Below, in pieces: positions 6,589 through 16,821 of a stretch of DNA of 64,000 nt; position 1 is the first letter of the stretch; every line of letters begins with the position of its first letter. A program made the translations under genes and the position numbers. Location of the stretch: positions 119,270-183,269 of the forward strand of contig CAZFKS010000001.1 of the NCBI GenBank assembly GCA_964519725.1. Direction: 5' to 3'. The notes under the pieces are model-generated. The model was not told where the DNA came from. It saw nothing but the letters and a program-made list of their open reading frames with translations, and did no database searches. The DNA comes from an uncultured Gammaproteobacteria bacterium. Its GTDB lineage: Bacteria; Patescibacteriota; Patescibacteriia; Magasanikbacterales; UBA922.

Positions 6589-8430
6589 TTAACCCACATG
6601 GTCTTTAAAATATTTTTCCGCTTCTTTATCCATAAAGTATACATAACAGCCTTTCATTCCGCGGGTCATGAGGGTGCGATAGGTATTTTTAATAATGGCA
6701 TTGGCTTTTTTAGTAGCTGCATCAGGGTCGATCTTGTGCAAAGTTTTAAAACCTTTAAGTGAGGTGTCAGTTTTGGCGCGGCCCTCTGGTACGCCAATTA
6801 CTTGGCCATTTCTCACAATTAAATCAGGACCAACAATTACGCCAATGTAATCAATTTCCAGGCCTTGGGCTGAATGAATGCAACCAACATCCTCCACTGA
6901 GGTTGGTGAAATAATCCAGGTATTGCGTTCACTATTTAAATTCCAGCGCATAGTAAAATTATGTTCTCGAATTTTAATATCCAGCAAATCTGGATTTTTC
7001 TCACTAATCCAATCCCAACACCGACCCGCTACAATCCGCGCTTTATTTCGTTCTTTATTTTTCTCGCGAATCAACTCTTGTAATTCTTGTGGTGAGTCAA
7101 CCACGCGAAAATCAAAGTCACCCGTTAATTGTGTGCCAGTATTTTTAATTTGCAAAGTATTGTCGAGCCAATCCAAAAAATTATCTGAGCCACCACACCG
7201 AAATTGAGAATTTAATTCTAAATAATGAATCCGCGCGCCGGCATTGGCCGCGCAGTGTTCAATTTCCACTTGACTACCAAAGTCATTCCAGGTCACTTTT
7301 TGGTCTTCATCTAAGAAAAATATAGAGCATTTGGCAGCCTGAATAATTTCGCGTACCTGATTACCGCCTTTTTTGCCATACATGCCAGTGCGTTCGTTCA
7401 GGCGGTGGGCTTCGTCTACAATCAAGGCTTCAAAAGTATTTGGCGCGATATTTTGGTAAGCACCAGAACCAGAAAAGAGTGCGCAAAATTCTTTAAAAGT
7501 CATTTTGTCCTTGAGCATGTGCTCATATACGGCGCGCGGCGCCGCGTTTTTGGTTACATATTGCGCGGCTTTCTGGGTACGGATTAGATTGATAAGTAAA
7601 TTAATCGCGACCACTGACTTCCCTGTCCCAGGCCCACCTTTAACAATTACCACCTGTTTATCTTTTGGTTTATTTACTAATTCCAAAATCGTTTCAAAAA
7701 CCACTTTTTGGTCATCAATCATGGTAAATTCTTCTTCGTTGTAAAGCGCGGCGGGCATTTGTTCGGCCACGCTGTGTGAGGGCTTAATCGCGCTTTGTTC
7801 AATTTTTTCTAAAATATCAGCAGCGCCAAATTGTAAGCGCTCGGCAATAAATTTTCTAAAAATATTTTCTTCACCTTTAAAAAATAAAGGTGCTTGATCC
7901 ACATATTCTTTATAAAAAATATTATCAATCACGCCATCCCGTTCATAATTGTGCAAATACACGCACGGCGTGACCACAATATTTTCCTGATGAATAACTT
8001 CAGTAAATCCGCGCAGTAAATTAGCATATACCAAAGCCTGATATGACGGATGAGCCACTTCCCTCTCAGTCGCACCCACAAAAGCTTTAATAACTCCGTC
8101 TTTTATAGTCATTTCAGCCGAGGTCCATTGCTTAAGCTCAATAATAACCACTTGATCTTTTTTCTCTTTATTTAGACCATACAAAATCACATCAATGCGT
8201 TTTCCTGTTGGCCGAACTTGATACTCAATCCCAATTTCCATATCACCCGGAATTTCTGGGGTATTCAAAACCTTACCCAGTGCTCCGAGCGATTGCTTCC
8301 ACGACTCCACTTCCCGTGCTCCACCGCCTCGGCCGAAATTCGCTTTCACCTTAGCCAAAACAATCGCCTCAATACGATTATTTTGTAGGTTCTCTAGAAA
8401 TTTAGTTTTGGTAGTGAGGTGGGAGATCAT
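6589..8430 (-). CDS. DUF2075-family (Schlafen-like) ATPase with an N-terminal nuclease-like domain
   Basis: Walker A VKGGPGTGKSV, Walker B LIVDEAHRL. N-terminal IDVILYG...VVIIELKQW resembles a restriction-endonuclease-like core. Last large gene of the hsd operon. Confidence 0.65.
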   Translation of the reverse strand: MISHLTTKTKFLENLQNNRIEAIVLAKVKANFGRGGGAREVESWKQSLGALGKVLNTPEIPGDMEIGIEYQVRPTGKRIDVILYGLNKEKKDQVVIIELKQWTSAEMTIKDGVIKAFVGATEREVAHPSYQALVYANLLRGFTEVIHQENIVVTPCVYLHNYERDGVIDNIFYKEYVDQAPLFFKGEENIFRKFIAERLQFGAADILEKIEQSAIKPSHSVAEQMPAALYNEEEFTMIDDQKVVFETILELVNKPKDKQVVIVKGGPGTGKSVVAINLLINLIRTQKAAQYVTKNAAPRAVYEHMLKDKMTFKEFCALFSGSGAYQNIAPNTFEALIVDEAHRLNERTGMYGKKGGNQVREIIQAAKCSIFFLDEDQKVTWNDFGSQVEIEHCAANAGARIHYLELNSQFRCGGSDNFLDWLDNTLQIKNTGTQLTGDFDFRVVDSPQELQELIREKNKERNKARIVAGRCWDWISEKNPDLLDIKIREHNFTMRWNLNSERNTWIISPTSVEDVGCIHSAQGLEIDYIGVIVGPDLIVRNGQVIGVPEGRAKTDTSLKGFKTLHKIDPDAATKKANAIIKNTYRTLMTRGMKGCYVYFMDKEAEKYFKDHVG

Positions 8431-8438
8431 TTTAAAAT

Positions 8439-8990
8439 TTACCTTGAAATAGTATCAAAATTTTGCAATTCTTTTCTTATATCAGCATACTTAGGCATGG
8501 CTCTAGCAACCAATTCCCAAAATTTCTTAGAATGATTTAATTCTTTTAAATGACATAGCTCATGCACGACAATATAATCCACCAAATAATCTGGCAAAAA
8601 CAAAATTTTATAATTAAAATTAAGATTCTTTTGTCCGGAACAACTCCCCCATTTAGTACTCTGTTGCTTAATACTAATGCGGTTATAAGAAAAATTATAC
8701 AATTCATTATAATGTACAACTCTTTCCTTAATTAATTTCCTAGCACGTTTAGCACAGGCATGATAATTTGTTTGTGGAAAATCCCTAGAGATTTCCTTCT
8801 TTTCTTTTTTTTGGAAAAACAAAATTTTAGACTTGATCCATTCGGCTTTTTCAGTGATGTATTTTTCCACCCCAGACAAATCAAATCCTTTTGGTACAAC
8901 CACTGAAACTCGAGCATCACAATTCACAACGATTCTTAGTCGCCGTGCTCGTTCACTTTCTTTAACCGAGTAAGCAATGCCGTGAGACAT
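8439..8990 (-). CDS. DUF45/YgjP (COG1451, WLM/M48-like) zinc metallohydrolase
   Basis: HExxH motif VVHELCHLKELNH. This family is a well-known neighbour of type I hsdR genes. Confidence 0.75.
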   Translation of the reverse strand: MSHGIAYSVKESERARRLRIVVNCDARVSVVVPKGFDLSGVEKYITEKAEWIKSKILFFQKKEKKEISRDFPQTNYHACAKRARKLIKERVVHYNELYNFSYNRISIKQQSTKWGSCSGQKNLNFNYKILFLPDYLVDYIVVHELCHLKELNHSKKFWELVARAMPKYADIRKELQNFDTISR

Positions 8991-8991
8991 G

Positions 8992-11931
8992 TTAAAACTT
9001 TTTAATGATTACATCGACTAAGCGATTGAGTAATTGATTTCGTTCAATGTCTTTGGTTAGGTTACCAAAATCTTTCCAAATTAATTCCTGCAAGGTTTGC
9101 TTGGTATTTTTAACAAACACATCTCGTTTTGATGACTCTTGCCAACCAGCATCAAGATCAGCTTCAACTCGAATCCGAACTTCTTTTACAAATTTTTGAA
9201 TCTCCTCGCCCTTTGTATCTTTTACAAACTCCTGTGAGATAACATACAGAGCATATTCTTTTAGATCAAGGCCTAATTCCTTAGCCTCTTCAGCTTTGGT
9301 TTTAATATCACTCATCAATTCCTCATAGCGACGAATTCTTTCGGCCAAATCAATCTGGTTTTGTTCAAATTGACGACGAATTGAAGTGAGACGCTCACTA
9401 AATTTAACAAACACGGGATTTTCATCCAAATTGATTGAAATTTCTTGTTTAAGCATCTTCTCCAAATTGAGCGCTTTTTCTTCTTCATCCATTCCCTTAA
9501 GTCGTTCAAGTGTATACAAATCATTCACACGCAACTCACGGAAATTTTTAGTAATTCCCTCGTAATCAATGATATTACTTTTTTGAATCAGAGCGCGAAC
9601 TTTTTCGCCATACTCTTCAAGAAGATACTTATCATCTTCACTCCGAAATTCCTTCAAAAAGGCCAAATAAAAACCGGTCACCCATTCAAATGGTCTAATT
9701 GATGGTTTCAAAAATGGATCCGGAGACAGAAACTCAAACAAACTCTTTAATTTTAAGTATTTCTCCACAAAGTATTTTTGCTTGTCCTGATTGTCAATAA
9801 AAATTTTCAAACAACGGCGTAAATTATCCATTGATGGGTCCTCAATATTTACACCAGTAAATATTTTCATGACATCATTCAACACATCGGTAAACAGATC
9901 TTTGATTCTGGCAATATCAATCATGGCTGAATCAATTATCTCTTCGTCAAAATCGAGCGCATCGTACAAATTTCGGGTAATTCCGTAATAATCAATAATC
10001 TTCCCGGCTTCTTTGTTTTTATATACCCGGTTAGTACGGGCAATGGCTTGCAAAAGATTATGGTCACGTAAAGGTTTATCCAAATACATGACTTGTTCAA
10101 TTGGTGCATCAAAACCAGTGAGCAACATGTCGCAAACCAATAAGAATTTAAGCGGTGACTTTGGGTCTTTGAATTGCTCAATAATCTGTTCACGTTCCCG
10201 TTTACTGGTGTTATAGACTTTCAAATCATCGGCATCACTATTTGGATCTCCAGGTGAATACACCACTGCCGACCATTCAGCTGGAACTAATTTATCCAGC
10301 AGTGTTTTATAAGCAGCCACGGCTTCACGATCATAGGCCACAATCTGAGCCTTAAAGCCGTTTGGTTCCACATACAGCTTGTAATGTTCCACAATATCTC
10401 GCGCCACTGCTTCCATCCGCTTGGGTAATTTTACCAAAGCTGCTTTTTTACCATATTTCTTTACCAATTCAGTTTTTTGTTTATCCGATAAATCACCAGC
10501 AATCTCTTCAAACTGTTCATCCAACTTAGTTTCATCAATCGAAAATTTAGACAGCCGCGCTTCATAGGTCATGGGAATAGTCGCGCCATCTTCAATTGCC
10601 TGTTGAATTGAATAGTAGTCTAAATAACGTTGACCTTCCCCTTCATAATTGCGGAAGGTATTGGTGTGCGCTTTATCCACAGGCGTACCAGTAAAGCCAA
10701 AGAAAAAGGCTTTCTTGAACGCATTACGCATGTTAATCCCCGATACCCCCTCGTCGCCTCGGTGTGCCTCATCGGACAGAACAATCACATTTTCATCTAA
10801 ATTTTCTACTTTGTCACCCAATTCAGAAAACTTTTGAATAGTGGTAATAAAAATCCCTTTTTCTGGTGACTGAATTTTTTCTTCTAAATCCTTGCGAGAA
10901 GTCACGCGGATAATATTCTTTCCACCGGCATTGATGAAGGTTTCAAAAATTTGGTCATCCAAATCTACCCGGTCAACCAAAATAAATACCTTAGGATTGG
11001 CTAATTCTTTATTAAAGCGCAATTTCCAGGCCGTAAAGTACATGGTCAAGGTCTTTCCTGACCCTTGGGTATGCCAAATTAAACCTTGGTGTTTTTCTTT
11101 TTTAACTACCCGGTCAACGATCTTATTAGTGGCCCGCATTTGCTGGTAACGGGCAATTTTCTTTACCACTCGCTCTTTTTCTTTTTCAAACAGAATAAAG
11201 TTTTGAATAATATCCAAGAAGTTATTCTTTGAAAGTAAAGAAATAAGGGTAACATCTAAACTAGCATCGTCTACATAATGACCTTTCCCTATCATAGACT
11301 TGGCTAGGTCATCATCACGCCACTGTAAAAAGTACTGCTTTGGTGCACCAGTCGCTCCGTAGACAGTTTTAAGGCCATCAGTGGCAATATTAAAGCAGTT
11401 AGGGATAAATAATTTACGAGCCACTTTTTCGTAACGCTTAATCTGATCAATCCCATTCTCAAAACTAACACCTTCCGAAGCAGTCGGACTTTTAGCTTCA
11501 ATATCTACTAATGGAATACCATTTAAAAAAATCAAAATATCCGGCCGAATATTTTCCGTATCACCTTCAAAATAAAATTGGTTAGTAACCACAAACTGAT
11601 TATTTTCAGGATTATCAAAATCAACTAATTTGTAATCTTGAAAATCACCAGTACTTGGATTTCGCAAATTAATCCCTTCACGCAAAGCTTTTAAAAATTC
11701 CTCATTAGAGTCAATCTTTTTAACCTCGCGAATAACATTACTAACCTCACTCACAGTTACCCCTGGATTAAGCCCCGCAATCGCCCGCTCCAAAAACGGA
11801 ACAATAATATACTCAACCTCAAGGTCGCGTAACTTAGCAAATTCCTCTGGCTTAATATACTCAAAACCAAGCTTATCCTTAATAAACTTAATAATGTAAT
11901 TTTCAATTGTGACTTGTTCGTTGAATTTCAT
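8992..11931 (-). CDS. hsdR: type I restriction enzyme R subunit
   Basis: 979 aa. N-terminal nuclease core (RPDILIF...DIEAKSP), helicase motif I HTQGSGKTLTM, DEAH box SDEAHR, motif VI QAIARTNR. Confidence 0.9.
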   Translation of the reverse strand: MKFNEQVTIENYIIKFIKDKLGFEYIKPEEFAKLRDLEVEYIIVPFLERAIAGLNPGVTVSEVSNVIREVKKIDSNEEFLKALREGINLRNPSTGDFQDYKLVDFDNPENNQFVVTNQFYFEGDTENIRPDILIFLNGIPLVDIEAKSPTASEGVSFENGIDQIKRYEKVARKLFIPNCFNIATDGLKTVYGATGAPKQYFLQWRDDDLAKSMIGKGHYVDDASLDVTLISLLSKNNFLDIIQNFILFEKEKERVVKKIARYQQMRATNKIVDRVVKKEKHQGLIWHTQGSGKTLTMYFTAWKLRFNKELANPKVFILVDRVDLDDQIFETFINAGGKNIIRVTSRKDLEEKIQSPEKGIFITTIQKFSELGDKVENLDENVIVLSDEAHRGDEGVSGINMRNAFKKAFFFGFTGTPVDKAHTNTFRNYEGEGQRYLDYYSIQQAIEDGATIPMTYEARLSKFSIDETKLDEQFEEIAGDLSDKQKTELVKKYGKKAALVKLPKRMEAVARDIVEHYKLYVEPNGFKAQIVAYDREAVAAYKTLLDKLVPAEWSAVVYSPGDPNSDADDLKVYNTSKREREQIIEQFKDPKSPLKFLLVCDMLLTGFDAPIEQVMYLDKPLRDHNLLQAIARTNRVYKNKEAGKIIDYYGITRNLYDALDFDEEIIDSAMIDIARIKDLFTDVLNDVMKIFTGVNIEDPSMDNLRRCLKIFIDNQDKQKYFVEKYLKLKSLFEFLSPDPFLKPSIRPFEWVTGFYLAFLKEFRSEDDKYLLEEYGEKVRALIQKSNIIDYEGITKNFRELRVNDLYTLERLKGMDEEEKALNLEKMLKQEISINLDENPVFVKFSERLTSIRRQFEQNQIDLAERIRRYEELMSDIKTKAEEAKELGLDLKEYALYVISQEFVKDTKGEEIQKFVKEVRIRVEADLDAGWQESSKRDVFVKNTKQTLQELIWKDFGNLTKDIERNQLLNRLVDVIIKKF

Positions 11932-12991: not shown

Positions 12992-14226
12992 ACTTGTTTT
13001 TTTCCACTCAGCAAATCTTGCATCAAGCCATTTTTGAGTAAAGTAAGTTTTGTTTTTAATTTTTTATTTACCGAAATTTTTTCATCAACAGCGGAAATAA
13101 TTTCTGCAATTTTTTCCTGCTCTTTCTTTTGTGGCAGGACAATTAAAAGTGGATTAAGTTTTTCCAAATTAATATTTTTTTGAGCGGATTGGGTAGAAAT
13201 ACTGTTAAGATACTCTTTTTGAGTTCTTAAATAATATTCCAAAAAAATCGGATTAATTTTTTCTTTACAAGAAATGCCCACCAAGCTATCAGGAAAGCAC
13301 GAATCAAACTCTAATATTCCAGTATCGCCAATGTTCGCGGCAATTGTAATAACGATAGTGCCTTTTTTAAACAATTTACTCACAGATAGACCTTTTTCGT
13401 TAAGTGTTTGGGTGTACTTTTTTATTCTTCCGTCTGAGCTGATAACATCACCAGTCTGTATAAATGGAATTTCCCCTCCATAAAATTCTGGTGCATTTCT
13501 CGGTCTATGAGAAAACTTACCCCGCTCCACAAGTGCAACGTCAGAAAGTCTTACGATATTCCACTCTTCCGGAATTTGTCCGATTTCTGTTTCCTTAAAT
13601 TTAGTATGCCCAATCCCATTTGTAAAAAGCTGCATCATTAGCCCGTGCTTGAGTTTTTCCGCAGATTTAATCACTTCATGCGTTTTAGTAATATCTTCAT
13701 CCACCGTCCTCAAAATCCCAGCAATCTTTTGTTGTTCTTTGATTGGGGGTAGTAAAACTTCTATACTTTCAACTTGGCTGGAGCTTATATTTTTTTGAGC
13801 CGCACCAATAAAATACTTCTCAAGTTTTGATATAAAATCTTTGTACAAAAATACTTGAAATGTAAAATCAGGATCTAAATCCTTATCTTTAAAGACAACA
13901 CGTCCTACGCGTTGATTTAAAATTGCTGGAAGATATTTCTTGTCAATTCGCGCTACTTTACCAAGTTCGCCAGTCATGCCCATCAAGATATCATTTTCTC
14001 TTAAGTGTACAGATTCATTGTTAGCATACCCATCTTCAGATATATACACAAAATCATTAGCCACAAAGTCTCCTTTGCCAACATTACCAATACGCACAAG
14101 CGGAATACCATCATTTACATAATTTGACGCGTTAAACGCATTGCCTCCTTGAAGCTTTATATGCCTTCCAATCGGAAGTAATTCCCACCCCTTAGGGATA
14201 TTTTGCTGTATCATGTTGGTTTTCAT
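12988..14226 (-). CDS. hsdS: type I restriction-modification specificity subunit (two target-recognition domains)
   Basis: 412 aa. Repeated TRD plus conserved spacer helices (LLPPIKEQQKIAGIL... and VLPQKKEQEKIAEII...) typical of HsdS. Confidence 0.85.
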   Translation of the reverse strand: MKTNMIQQNIPKGWELLPIGRHIKLQGGNAFNASNYVNDGIPLVRIGNVGKGDFVANDFVYISEDGYANNESVHLRENDILMGMTGELGKVARIDKKYLPAILNQRVGRVVFKDKDLDPDFTFQVFLYKDFISKLEKYFIGAAQKNISSSQVESIEVLLPPIKEQQKIAGILRTVDEDITKTHEVIKSAEKLKHGLMMQLFTNGIGHTKFKETEIGQIPEEWNIVRLSDVALVERGKFSHRPRNAPEFYGGEIPFIQTGDVISSDGRIKKYTQTLNEKGLSVSKLFKKGTIVITIAANIGDTGILEFDSCFPDSLVGISCKEKINPIFLEYYLRTQKEYLNSISTQSAQKNINLEKLNPLLIVLPQKKEQEKIAEIISAVDEKISVNKKLKTKLTLLKNGLMQDLLSGKKQV

Positions 14227-15128
14227 ACTATGTTATTTGAAACCCATTTAATTGAACCAGCAATAGAAGCGTTCAAAACTTGTAGACAAATTTTTGCAGT
14301 ATGAATATCTGGTGAAAATTTTGAAATACTTTGTTCGTAAGGATGGATATAATTGCGAAAATCTCGCAGAGCGTGTCCAAATTTCTTTACATCCAATCCA
14401 ATCACGCCGAGTTCGTGAGCCACGTCAATAAGACCAGCAAGCTTCCAATCAGGTAACGGTAAAACTTTTCCAGTTTTGTCTTTCGGACTTGCATTAGCTG
14501 ATTGAAATTTTTGAGGATGTTTTACTGCGATACCAAATAAAATTCCTTCCAGCGTACTGCCAGCCATAATAACAGAAGATAAAGGCGACTTGTATTGTAG
14601 ACATTGGCGAGATTCTAGAATACGCTCTTTTAATATACTCTCTATTGCCGCATCAAGACCGAGCTTGGAAATGTCATTTTCATCAAAATCTTTTTTTAAA
14701 AACTCTTCTTCAGAATCAATTGATGTATTTTTTGTATCTATTATTGGGCCGACAGACTCCTTTAAATACTTTAGAATAGGGTCACGGCCTTGAAAAGCAA
14801 CACTCATGTTCTCCATAGACAAAATATCGTTCATCGCTTTTGCAGCCATCTCCAATTTAGCTCTATCTGCCTTGTACTCCCTTATATCAACAAGCCTCAA
14901 AATCACTTTTTCAAGGTCATTCAATGTTAATTGTTTGAGCAGTTCAAGTACCCACCATTTTCGAGTACTACCATCATGGGTCACATTTATATTTATATTT
15001 TGAAAAAAACGAGTTAAATAACCTGAAGATCTATATTCCGGGTACTTTTGCGCCACATCTCCACAAATAAAATCAGCAAGGGCATCAAGTGTCGCGGGAT
15101 CTAATTTATTTTTTAAAAATACCGCCAT
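14223..15128 (-). CDS. hypothetical protein, HEPN-like (Rx6H motif) Abi/DUF4145-type candidate embedded between hsdM and hsdS
   Basis: C-terminal HALRDFRNYIHPYEQ contains an R-x6-H motif in a helical context. The position equals that of known HEPN/Abi insertions in type I R-M operons. Otherwise no strong motif. Confidence 0.3.
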   Translation of the reverse strand: MAVFLKNKLDPATLDALADFICGDVAQKYPEYRSSGYLTRFFQNININVTHDGSTRKWWVLELLKQLTLNDLEKVILRLVDIREYKADRAKLEMAAKAMNDILSMENMSVAFQGRDPILKYLKESVGPIIDTKNTSIDSEEEFLKKDFDENDISKLGLDAAIESILKERILESRQCLQYKSPLSSVIMAGSTLEGILFGIAVKHPQKFQSANASPKDKTGKVLPLPDWKLAGLIDVAHELGVIGLDVKKFGHALRDFRNYIHPYEQSISKFSPDIHTAKICLQVLNASIAGSIKWVSNNIV

Positions 15129-15129
15129 A

Positions 15130-16821
15130 CTAATATTTCAATTCCTTGAGATATTCGTCCACCTTTTTATCAATAATATCCCGCTCTTTTTCAATTTCCT
15201 TTACCTGAGCCCACACGGTTTTTACATCAATGTTTTCTTCTTCATCAGCATTTTCCACATAGCGACGAACATTGAGGTTGTATTCGTTTTCTGCTAATTC
15301 TTTGGTGTCAATAACGCGGGCGTATTTTTCGATATCACGGTAATTTTCAAAGGCGGAGACAATTTTTTCAATATCAACCTTACGCAAACGGTTTTGATTT
15401 TTTCCTTCTTCGTAATCTTGTTCGGCGTCAACAATGAGGATTTTATTTTTGTGATCGACTGGCTTATTTTTGTTAAAAATTACAATTGCAGCCGGAATAC
15501 CTGTTCCGTAAAAAAGTTTAGCTGGGAGTGCGATGATGGCTTCAATTAAGTCATTTTTAATGAGTTGTTCACGAATACGGCCTTCGGCCCCGCCACGAAA
15601 AAGCACGCCATGAGGAAGTACAATGCCAGCGCGACCATTTTCATTCATTGATTTAACTAAATGCATGACAAAGGCATAGTCCGCATTTTTGGCTGGCGGC
15701 ATTTCATATCCAGCGGCTCGTTTATAACTATCTGATTTAAATTTTTCGTAAGCGTAGTCCTTAATCGAGTACGGTGGATTACTAATGCAGATGTCGAATG
15801 TTTTGAGTGTACCATCTGGGTTGAGGAACTTCGGGTCAGCCAGTGTGTCCCCGCGTTGAATGTCCGCACTATCCAGTCCATGCAAGAACATGTTGATTTT
15901 GGCAATGGCGTAGGTGCCAATATTAATTTCTTGTCCGTAGAGGTAAAGTGAACGGGCCTTTTTTTCACCAGCTTCATTCTTTAAATGGTGATATGCTTCC
16001 AACAAAAAACCACCTGAACCAGCGGCCATGTCGTAAATATGGTCTTTCTCATGTGGCTTTAAAATATTAATAATTACACGTTCAACTTCGCGCGGTGTGT
16101 AGAAACTACCACCTTTTTTACCACCATCAGCAGCAAATTGTTGGATGAGGTATTCATAAGCATCACCTAAAAGGTCGGTACTAATGTAGTTGTCGCCAAA
16201 ATTATGCTTGGAAAAATGATTGATTAGTTTTTGCAAAATTTCATTGGGAAATTTGTCTTTATTGGCAAAATCCAGATCGTCAAAAATACGGTCCAGTTTT
16301 GGACTATTGGCAGTAGTGAGGTCATCAAAAATAGTATTGAGTTTTTGGCCAATACCTTCGGCTTGCTGTTGAATGACTTCCCAACGACAATGACTCGGGA
16401 CTTGAAAACGATGGTTATAATCAGCCCGAGCCACTTCTTCATCATGATATTCTTCTAGGACTTTTTTATATTCTTCGTCCCACACATCACTAATGCGCTT
16501 GTAAAAAAGAAGACCGAAAATATATTTTTTGTAATCAGCACTATCAATGCGGTCGCGCAAAATATCCGCACTGCTCCACAAAAATTGCTTGAGTTGAGTG
16601 AGGTTCATTTTTCCCTCGTCGTTGGTCAGCGAGCTGCCCAAGTCTTTGACAATACTTTTGTCATTGGCGATTCGTTCAATATCCTCGGGCTTATATTTAC
16701 GGTCTTTGCGAGGACCAACCCGTAAAGGGGTTATGAGCCCTTTTTTCTCCCAGTTGCGGAGAGTGTCTTGATGAATGCCAAAAATGGTTGAGACTTCGCT
16801 AATACTGAGTAGATTGGCCAT
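15130..16821 (-). CDS. hsdM: type I restriction-modification N6-adenine DNA methyltransferase M subunit with N-terminal MerR-type HTH extension
   Basis: NPPY motif ISNPPYS, SAM motif DMAAGSGGFL, HsdM N-domain (LWSSADILR). First about 50 aa LSISEVSTIFGIHQDTLRNWEKKGLITP is an HTH_17/MerR-like helix-turn-helix. Confidence 0.9.
   Translation of the reverse strand: MANLLSISEVSTIFGIHQDTLRNWEKKGLITPLRVGPRKDRKYKPEDIERIANDKSIVKDLGSSLTNDEGKMNLTQLKQFLWSSADILRDRIDSADYKKYIFGLLFYKRISDVWDEEYKKVLEEYHDEEVARADYNHRFQVPSHCRWEVIQQQAEGIGQKLNTIFDDLTTANSPKLDRIFDDLDFANKDKFPNEILQKLINHFSKHNFGDNYISTDLLGDAYEYLIQQFAADGGKKGGSFYTPREVERVIINILKPHEKDHIYDMAAGSGGFLLEAYHHLKNEAGEKKARSLYLYGQEINIGTYAIAKINMFLHGLDSADIQRGDTLADPKFLNPDGTLKTFDICISNPPYSIKDYAYEKFKSDSYKRAAGYEMPPAKNADYAFVMHLVKSMNENGRAGIVLPHGVLFRGGAEGRIREQLIKNDLIEAIIALPAKLFYGTGIPAAIVIFNKNKPVDHKNKILIVDAEQDYEEGKNQNRLRKVDIEKIVSAFENYRDIEKYARVIDTKELAENEYNLNVRRYVENADEEENIDVKTVWAQVKEIEKERDIIDKKVDEYLKELKY

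Follow-up and report, generated by a model that had tools for sequence, protein, structure and literature searches.

What does a gene for a 301-amino-acid protein do between hsdM and hsdS of a type I restriction-modification (R-M) operon? The question is raised by a stretch of 64,000 nucleotides (the window) of contig CAZFKS010000001.1 (assembly GCA_964519725.1), which comes from an uncultured bacterium placed by GTDB in the Patescibacteriota. A sequence-only reading of this stretch had described the gene (the target) as starting 1 nt after hsdM, overlapping hsdS by 4 bp and encoding a HEPN-like protein with an R-x6-H motif. Its length and both junctions are confirmed in the sequence, and Pfam confirms its neighbours as genuine type I genes. 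The analysis leads to the view, held with some reservations, that the target is probably a self-contained sensor-effector defence protein, made of a single polypeptide, which travels in R-M operons and provides a back-up in the form of suicide or growth arrest.

The homologues of the target form 3,718 clusters at 90% identity, nearly all of them of about 300 amino acids. Conservation was followed in two alignments, one with 34 closer homologues (A1; 46-85% identity) and another with 31 divergent representatives (A4; 28-46% identity). In the AlphaFold2 (AF2) model of the full target, built on the alignment with a predicted local distance difference test (pLDDT) of 87.3, an N-terminal domain (residues 1-125) is followed by a linker (residues ~126-154) and by a helical C-terminal domain. 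The latter has the four-helix up-down bundle of the HEPN fold together with the insert that usually lies between helices 2 and 3, and this insert (residues 204-244) is itself conserved (PKDKxGK, W228). The N-terminal two-thirds of the protein had been left as unassigned; this holds as far as library matches are concerned, but the protein is really made up of a separate domain of 125 residues, a linker of ~30 residues and a HEPN domain of ~145 residues.

The predicted catalytic motif is contained in HALRDFRNYIHPYEQ, which corresponds to target residues 252-266. The R-x6-H motif is present, as it had been claimed, at residues 255-262, but it does not lie inside a helix: in the AF2 model R255 is the last residue of the helix 245-255, D256 is the next one and H262 is located in the loop after it. 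Besides, the motif had been taken as the hallmark of HEPN RNases. The bare pattern was dropped as evidence, since R-x(4-6)-H is present in 49% of the composition-preserving shuffles of the target and the motif is therefore meaningful only through its conservation and its structural position. Regarding the first, H252, R255, F257, R258, N259, I261, H262, P263 and Q266 are invariant in A1, whereas in A4 only five positions of the protein are invariant (L103, G190, E194, R258 and H262), with R255, N259, P263, R169, E172 and W228 conserved in at least 90% of the sequences. The family signature can be written as [LV]R-x-[FY]-R-N-x-[IV]-H-P. The conservation of the R and H residues, on which the proposal had been made to depend, is thus borne out, and the motif stands at the position of the HEPN active site.

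Catalytically competent HEPNs carry three features (PMC3710099), which are matched by the target. Their active sites have a conserved acid in helix 2 and the motif where helix 3 finishes, and the R-x-H motif has been lost from non-catalytic HEPNs (PMC3710099). Taken together, residue conservation and the structural model support the assignment of the C-terminal half as a HEPN-fold domain with the full predicted signature of metal-independent endoribonucleases, consisting of R255, the polar D256, N259, H262 and the acidic residue E194 of helix 2.

The N-terminal domain has no sequence match in Pfam, NCBIfam, PADLOC or the PDB. The PDB search, carried out with the single protein and with profiles A1, A2 and A4, gave nothing meaningful, and the matches to Ika8, a fibronectin-binding protein, FAM118B (E 0.07) and CSN1 (E 0.1) were judged to be due to chance. 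A profile of residues 1-126 compared exhaustively with 1.84 billion representatives gave 527 matches (E <=1e-3; 63 to 597 amino acids long) and, once the N-terminal domain was removed from them, at least 12 unrelated C-terminal classes remained. Pfam recognises in these classes TIR_2, the CAP12-PCTIR type of TIR (CAP12/Pycsar), the pPIWI-associated nuclease pP_pnuc_1, the HEPN of AbiJ (Abi_C, in P0279), the Ymh HEPN (Hypoth_Ymh, in P0264) and Pkinase (P0216 and P0273); weaker matches among the fusions are AbiJ_NTD4, below threshold, in P0147 and Nuc_deoxyrib_tr in P0218. AbiJ_NTD3, NTD4 and NTD5 were considered as identities of the N-terminal domain itself and rejected, as none of them matched it and NTD4 stands beside this domain in P0147. 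On the fused regions PADLOC detects the defence effectors spbK, bSEFIR, PDC-S35, AbiJ, PD-Lambda-3_B/Aga_HEPN and PD-T4-6/Stk2/mad6, and the models of these effectors never reach into the N-terminal domain. Since this module is swapped, across bacteria, onto TIR, bSEFIR, kinase, AbiJ- or Ymh-type HEPN and nuclease domains, the best reading of it is as the half of the protein that regulates or senses.

The polar core of this half (C22-G23-D24, Y32-R33, H51-D52-G53-x-x-R56, W59 and N100) is equally conserved in proteins fused to HEPN and in those fused to TIR, kinase or other domains, and the residues concerned sit in two long loops of the AF2 model, both modelled with confidence, which connect helices 1-2 and helices 2-3. 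This suggests that the polar core is a predicted binding site intrinsic to the N-terminal domain.

Between both domains, the linker holds a short conserved helix, EEFLxKxF, in which F143 and L144 are invariant and F148 is near-invariant in A1. The same helix is kept in a type I operon of Zixiibacteriota (L092), where the linker and the HEPN domain are 56% identical to those of the target despite being joined to an unrelated N-terminal domain without any Pfam match. The linker helix is a candidate autoinhibitory or docking element. In that locus (6641..9098) the gene of the linker-HEPN protein is followed by a gene for a 535-amino-acid DUF6119 protein (6e-150) and then by hsdR.

The junction between hsdM and the target reads TAG-T-ATG, so that hsdM including its stop codon ends at 15130, the ATG of the target is at 15128 and a 1-nt spacer separates them; on the other side, the TGA of the target and the ATG of hsdS share the ATGA at 14223-14226, that is, an overlap of 4 bp. 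The target is tightly coupled in translation with hsdM and hsdS.

A scan with one genome per species found the family in at least 586 species genomes, from the candidate phyla radiation (CPR), Actinomycetota, Bacteroidota, Pseudomonadota, Planctomycetota, Chloroflexota, Omnitrophota and Aquificota, among others. The carrier nearest to the target is a metagenome-assembled genome of Candidatus Adlerbacteria (85% identity), which shares the hsdM-X-hsdS layout, X being the homologue. When the open reading frames around 80 loci were clustered, R-M genes alone recurred, nearly all on the same strand: HsdM-type methylases in 19 loci, HsdR/Res helicases in 12, HsdS in nine, N4/N6 methylases in eight, type III Mod in six and type III Res in five. 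An R-M gene lies within 4.5 kb in 29 of the 80 loci (~36%), or in 20 of the 51 with full flanks, and it is directly adjacent in 16. The statement that HEPN genes are embedded in R-M operons therefore applies to this family, whose only recurrent neighbours are R-M genes. The homologue does not keep one place relative to the R-M genes: it occurs as M-X-S or S-X-R, ahead of M, and on either side of type III Mod; M-X-S is found in the related CPR loci L015 (85% identity) and P0013 (66%) and also in L044.

In other contexts sampled, the gene comes directly after one for a CAP12/PCTIR TIR, with an OLD-type nuclease close by, belongs to a three-gene cassette that lacks annotation and lies near a TIR gene, precedes a pair formed by a zinc-ribbon (ZnR)-DUF4145 gene and an HNH gene, or stands alone on a mobile element. 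Members of the family are carried by, or lie close to, mobile elements that have resolvase, relaxase and integrases. These other contexts are also of the defence type, which supports the defence reading. In contrast to HEPN-MNT toxin-antitoxin pairs, in which an MNT gene is adjacent, the neighbours of the target in the window are hsdM and hsdS, and no MNT, other antitoxin or other conserved partner was found among the neighbours of the 80 loci. The plasmid-borne homologues are all annotated as hypothetical proteins, as the family is in RefSeq, and the whole target has no match in NCBIfam.

Some of these loci deserve a description of their own. In L005 (5108..12986) the homologue P0083 is located between type III mod and res, with a gene for an 800-amino-acid AAA_13 ATPase downstream; this placement means that the slot for cargo genes in R-M systems is not specific to type I. 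In candidate division WWE3 (L008, 7001..9194, and also L018) a zinc-ribbon + DUF4145 protein and then an HNH protein are encoded after the homologue, and a NYN-domain protein upstream of it. The DUF4145 protein has the architecture of RAZR with Lys in place of the motif Arg (VKDIGNLATH), and two different HEPN proteins thus stand side by side. On a plasmid of Paraburkholderia fungorum (L096) a homologue of the HEPN half of the target is directly followed by a highly divergent PIN_12 gene. PIN_12 was rejected as a general or obligate partner, since it is absent among the neighbours of the 80 loci despite this plasmid and despite lying one gene away from the target in the window.

A mode of action can be proposed by analogy with RAZR, PrrC/RloC, RnlA/LsoA and the AbiJ-type model, from which the RNase activity, the autoinhibition, the trigger and the abortive outcome are inferred. 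In the uninfected cell the N-terminal domain, possibly together with the linker helix, would block the productive HEPN dimer or oligomer. An infection-associated signal would reach the N-terminal domain and the HEPN domain would be released. The freed HEPN domains might then build a composite active site and cut cellular and/or invader RNA (tRNA, rRNA or mRNA) without metal. Translation would stop and the infected cell would arrest or die, a back-up to the type I enzyme in case restriction fails.

Several observations weigh against this proposal, and they affect its two halves as well as its generality. Regarding the HEPN half, Pfam DUF4145 (PF13643) gives 15.2 bits on the target (E 0.023), below its gathering cut-off of 23.1, and no curated HEPN profile reaches its own threshold on it. 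That DUF4145 is the sole family matched, by only 10 of the 34 members of A1 and six of the 31 of A4 and with a best E of 1.1e-4, also has a side in favour of the proposal, given that DUF4145 HEPNs are RNase or defence effectors in RAZR, BxaP and Ishtar. In hhalign, against one narrow reference (a 14-member ZnR-DUF4145 subfamily seeded from the gene adjoining the WWE3 homologue of the target), the probability was 0.6% with A1 and 2.9% (E 0.016) with A4. The A4 register speaks for the proposal: it covers the right region and pairs E172/E194/R255/N259 of the target with the conserved E/E/K-R/N of that subfamily. The comparison by hhalign with a single DUF4145 sequence reached no significance, and the spacing from R to H is 6 in the target vs 7 in RAZR-type DUF4145 proteins. 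Because of the sub-threshold score, the weak hhalign result and the other spacing, the HEPN domain is best called DUF4145-like and is not assigned to PF13643; the comparison with named HEPN families proposed in the sequence-only reading gave DUF4145 as the only match, below its threshold. As for the active site, R258 (R-x3-H) is a second invariant Arg and the catalytic role could fall to R255 or to R258.

The remaining points concern function. About 60% of the loci have no R-M gene nearby, so the role of back-up to restriction cannot be general. There is no phage-encoded homologue in 50,697 phage records, and the whole target has no match among the PADLOC models. Finally, conservation is higher in the N-terminal domain than in the HEPN domain, and the polar core of the former does not vary across phyla, which would not be expected of a domain that senses fast-evolving phage proteins; its ligand may instead be a small molecule or a conserved component of the host, or the domain may have an activity of its own.

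The arrangement of the genes in the window would also suit a guardian in the style of PrrC, kept silent by the HsdM2S (or HsdR2M2S) complex of the surrounding genes and freed once a phage anti-restriction protein (Ocr, ArdA or Stp-like) disables this complex, after which it would cut tRNA anticodon loops. The 1-nt gap to hsdM and the overlap with hsdS favour stoichiometric co-production, the M-X-S position is retained in L015, P0013 and L044, R-M genes are the only recurrent neighbours of the family, and PrrC and RloC are themselves HEPN nucleases embedded in R-M operons (PMC3710099). Nevertheless, such an explanation is rather unlikely: the family is also found after hsdS, before hsdM, in type III systems, by TIR genes and alone on mobile elements, the target is devoid of an ABC-ATPase domain of the PrrC/RloC kind, and its N-terminal domain is common to TIR and kinase effectors without R-M linkage. 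Given such varied contexts, the protein is unlikely to depend strictly on a single kind of R-M complex as its partner. A PrrC-like dependence on the R-M complex is possible at the locus of the window, given the translational coupling, and as a general rule it is disfavoured.

The mobile elements on or near which the family occurs lead to another explanation, according to which the protein would be a non-suicidal and target-selective HEPN nuclease that clears the element by degrading a particular RNA of the invader (for example replication primers or early transcripts of plasmids or phages) while the host survives. There is a precedent in Ishtar, a DUF4145-type HEPN protein which makes cells lose plasmids while their viability falls only a little; but most of the characterised single-gene HEPN defences (RAZR, RnlA/LsoA and AbiV-type) work by abortive infection, the TIR and kinase partners of the N-terminal domain are typical effectors of arrest or suicide, and nothing points to selectivity, which makes this explanation quite improbable. 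It is very improbable indeed that the HEPN domain is non-catalytic and, as a ligand-binding or scaffold domain, exerts control over the R-M enzyme (for example over methylase assembly or the alleviation of restriction), since R, N, H and the acid of helix 2 are invariant across phyla, whereas non-catalytic HEPNs have lost R-x-H, and the protein is often found without any R-M genes. A sensor-effector protein with a HEPN RNase of the arrest or suicide type consequently continues to be the preferred explanation.

The features discussed are collected in Table 1. The operon is tightly packed on the minus strand in the order hsdM, target, hsdS, PIN_12, hsdR, YgjP-like and Schlafen-type helicase, and it forms a stretch of low GC content (0.34-0.40, vs 0.43-0.47 in the flanks).

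Table 1. Features of the target and of the surrounding operon, in window coordinates.
Feature	Position	Strand	Description
Target gene	14223..15128	-	301 aa, ATG start; two-domain protein: N-terminal module, linker, HEPN domain
N-terminal domain, residues 1-125	14754..15128	-	Six helices and a beta-hairpin; AF2 of the domain alone, pLDDT 88.8, predicted template modelling score (pTM) 0.81
Acidic linker, residues 126-154	14667..14753	-	Disordered, variable; pLDDT 46-63 over 121-150
HEPN domain, residues 155-301	14223..14666	-	Helices 1-4 at 160-178, 182-203, 245-255, 275-299; insert 204-244
E194, acidic residue of helix 2 (GS-x-LEG)	14547..14549	-	Invariant in A1 and A4; within helix 182-203
Predicted catalytic motif R255-D-F-R258-N259-Y-I-H262 (R-x6-H)	14343..14366	-	Direct read RDFRNYIH; conservation
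hsdM, 563 aa	15130..16821	-	N6_Mtase 1e-107, HsdM_N 3e-26, MerR_1 1e-11
hsdS, 412 aa	12988..14226	-	Methylase_S 3e-45, two stretches
PIN_12 protein gene, 350 aa	11939..12991	-	PIN_12 2e-21; PADLOC PDC-S34 1e-13 over residues 224-297
hsdR, 979 aa	8992..11931	-	HSDR_N 3e-36, SWI2_SNF2 3e-69, ResIII, T1R_D3-like, T1RH-like_C
YgjP-like metallopeptidase gene, 183 aa	8439..8990	-	7e-45
Schlafen-group-3-type helicase gene, 613 aa	6589..8430	-	Helicase domain 1e-96

The PIN_12 gene, located between hsdS and hsdR and sharing 4 bp with the end of hsdS, is a second cargo of RNase type in the operon, and the C-terminal part of its protein matches the PADLOC candidate system PDC-S34. Residues 6-65 of HsdM form a MerR-type helix-turn-helix ahead of HsdM_N; the related loci L013 and L095 have this fusion as well, and the helix-turn-helix may serve for DNA binding in autoregulation. 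The genes of the YgjP-like protein and of the helicase come directly after hsdR on the same strand, separated by gaps of 1 and 8 nt; the helicase protein has an N-terminus of 250 residues without an assigned domain. The defence island probably reaches ~6.6 kb in the coordinates of the window.

HEPN RNase genes in R-M operons are a theme recognised since 2013 and the basic finding is not surprising in this respect. Of practical value is a large family (with the clusters and species counted above) for which Pfam, NCBIfam and PADLOC have no model, and which is a compact single-gene candidate defence. Its N-terminal module is common to relatives of the validated systems PD-T4-6, PD-Lambda-3 and AbiJ, and to know what this module senses would explain the activation of many otherwise unrelated defence proteins. 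Related to this, the domain could be an effector-agnostic infection sensor or adaptor whose polar pocket couples one conserved signal interchangeably to HEPN, TIR or kinase, perhaps as a distant death-fold-like domain. This idea is speculative and its truth unlikely; the signal could consist, for example, of a small molecule, of some feature of nucleic acids or of a host or phage component that is conserved. If a death-fold-like six-helix adaptor were true, the TIR and kinase fusions would be bacterial counterparts of MyD88 (DD+TIR) and IRAK (DD+kinase).

Among the known systems, the nearest description for the N-terminal half is that of AbiJ-NTD1, a mostly helical domain of ~140 amino acids which is fused to the AbiJ, Ymh and DUF4145 HEPNs, to a Ser/Thr kinase and to a nucleoside deoxyribosyltransferase (PMC3710099). 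The architecture of AbiJ-NTD1 followed by a DUF4145-like HEPN, and the association with R-M operons, were described in 2013 in the computational survey of Anantharaman, Makarova, Burroughs, Koonin and Aravind (PMC3710099). The target agrees with this architecture, with an N-terminal domain of ~125-140 amino acids, mostly alpha-helical, ahead of a DUF4145-like HEPN, and its domain has the published partners (AbiJ and Ymh HEPNs, Ser/Thr kinase and, weakly, nucleoside deoxyribosyltransferase). On the other hand, the TIR fusions observed here are not listed for NTD1. The N-terminal domain is presumably AbiJ-NTD1, an identification made from the description and the list of partners rather than from direct comparison of sequences.

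Regarding the HEPN half, RAZR (PD-T7-4) consists of a zinc finger and a DUF4145 HEPN; it cleaves single-stranded RNA, and its substitutions R146A and H154A abolish defence (PMC13017515). It is activated by assembly around rings of the phage portal or Gp77 (PMC13017515). Unlike the target, with its helical module and R-x6-H, RAZR has a Cys4 zinc ribbon at the N-terminus and an R-x7-H motif (R146/H154), and the DUF4145 subfamily with the RAZR-like zinc-ribbon architecture has no significant match to the HEPN profile of the target. PrrC and RloC resemble the target in that a type I R-M operon contains the HEPN nuclease-type gene that encodes them, giving a second line of defence. However, they carry a large ABC-ATPase N-terminus where the target has a helical domain of 125 residues with neither an NTPase motif nor a match to an ATPase family, and the R-M linkage of the target family is facultative (~36% of loci). 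BxaP, associated with BREX, and the anti-plasmid protein Ishtar1 are, like the target, compact single-gene systems with a DUF4145-type HEPN effector that ride with other defence systems. In them the order of domains is different, with the HEPN at the N-terminus and the accessory domain (HEAT-like in BxaP, beta-rich in Ishtar1) at the C-terminus, and their matches to Pfam DUF4145 are strong (98.5% in HHpred for BxaP) whereas that of the target is sub-threshold. RAZR, BxaP and Ishtar are thus three validated single-gene defences of the DUF4145-type HEPN, each with accessory domains other than that of the target.

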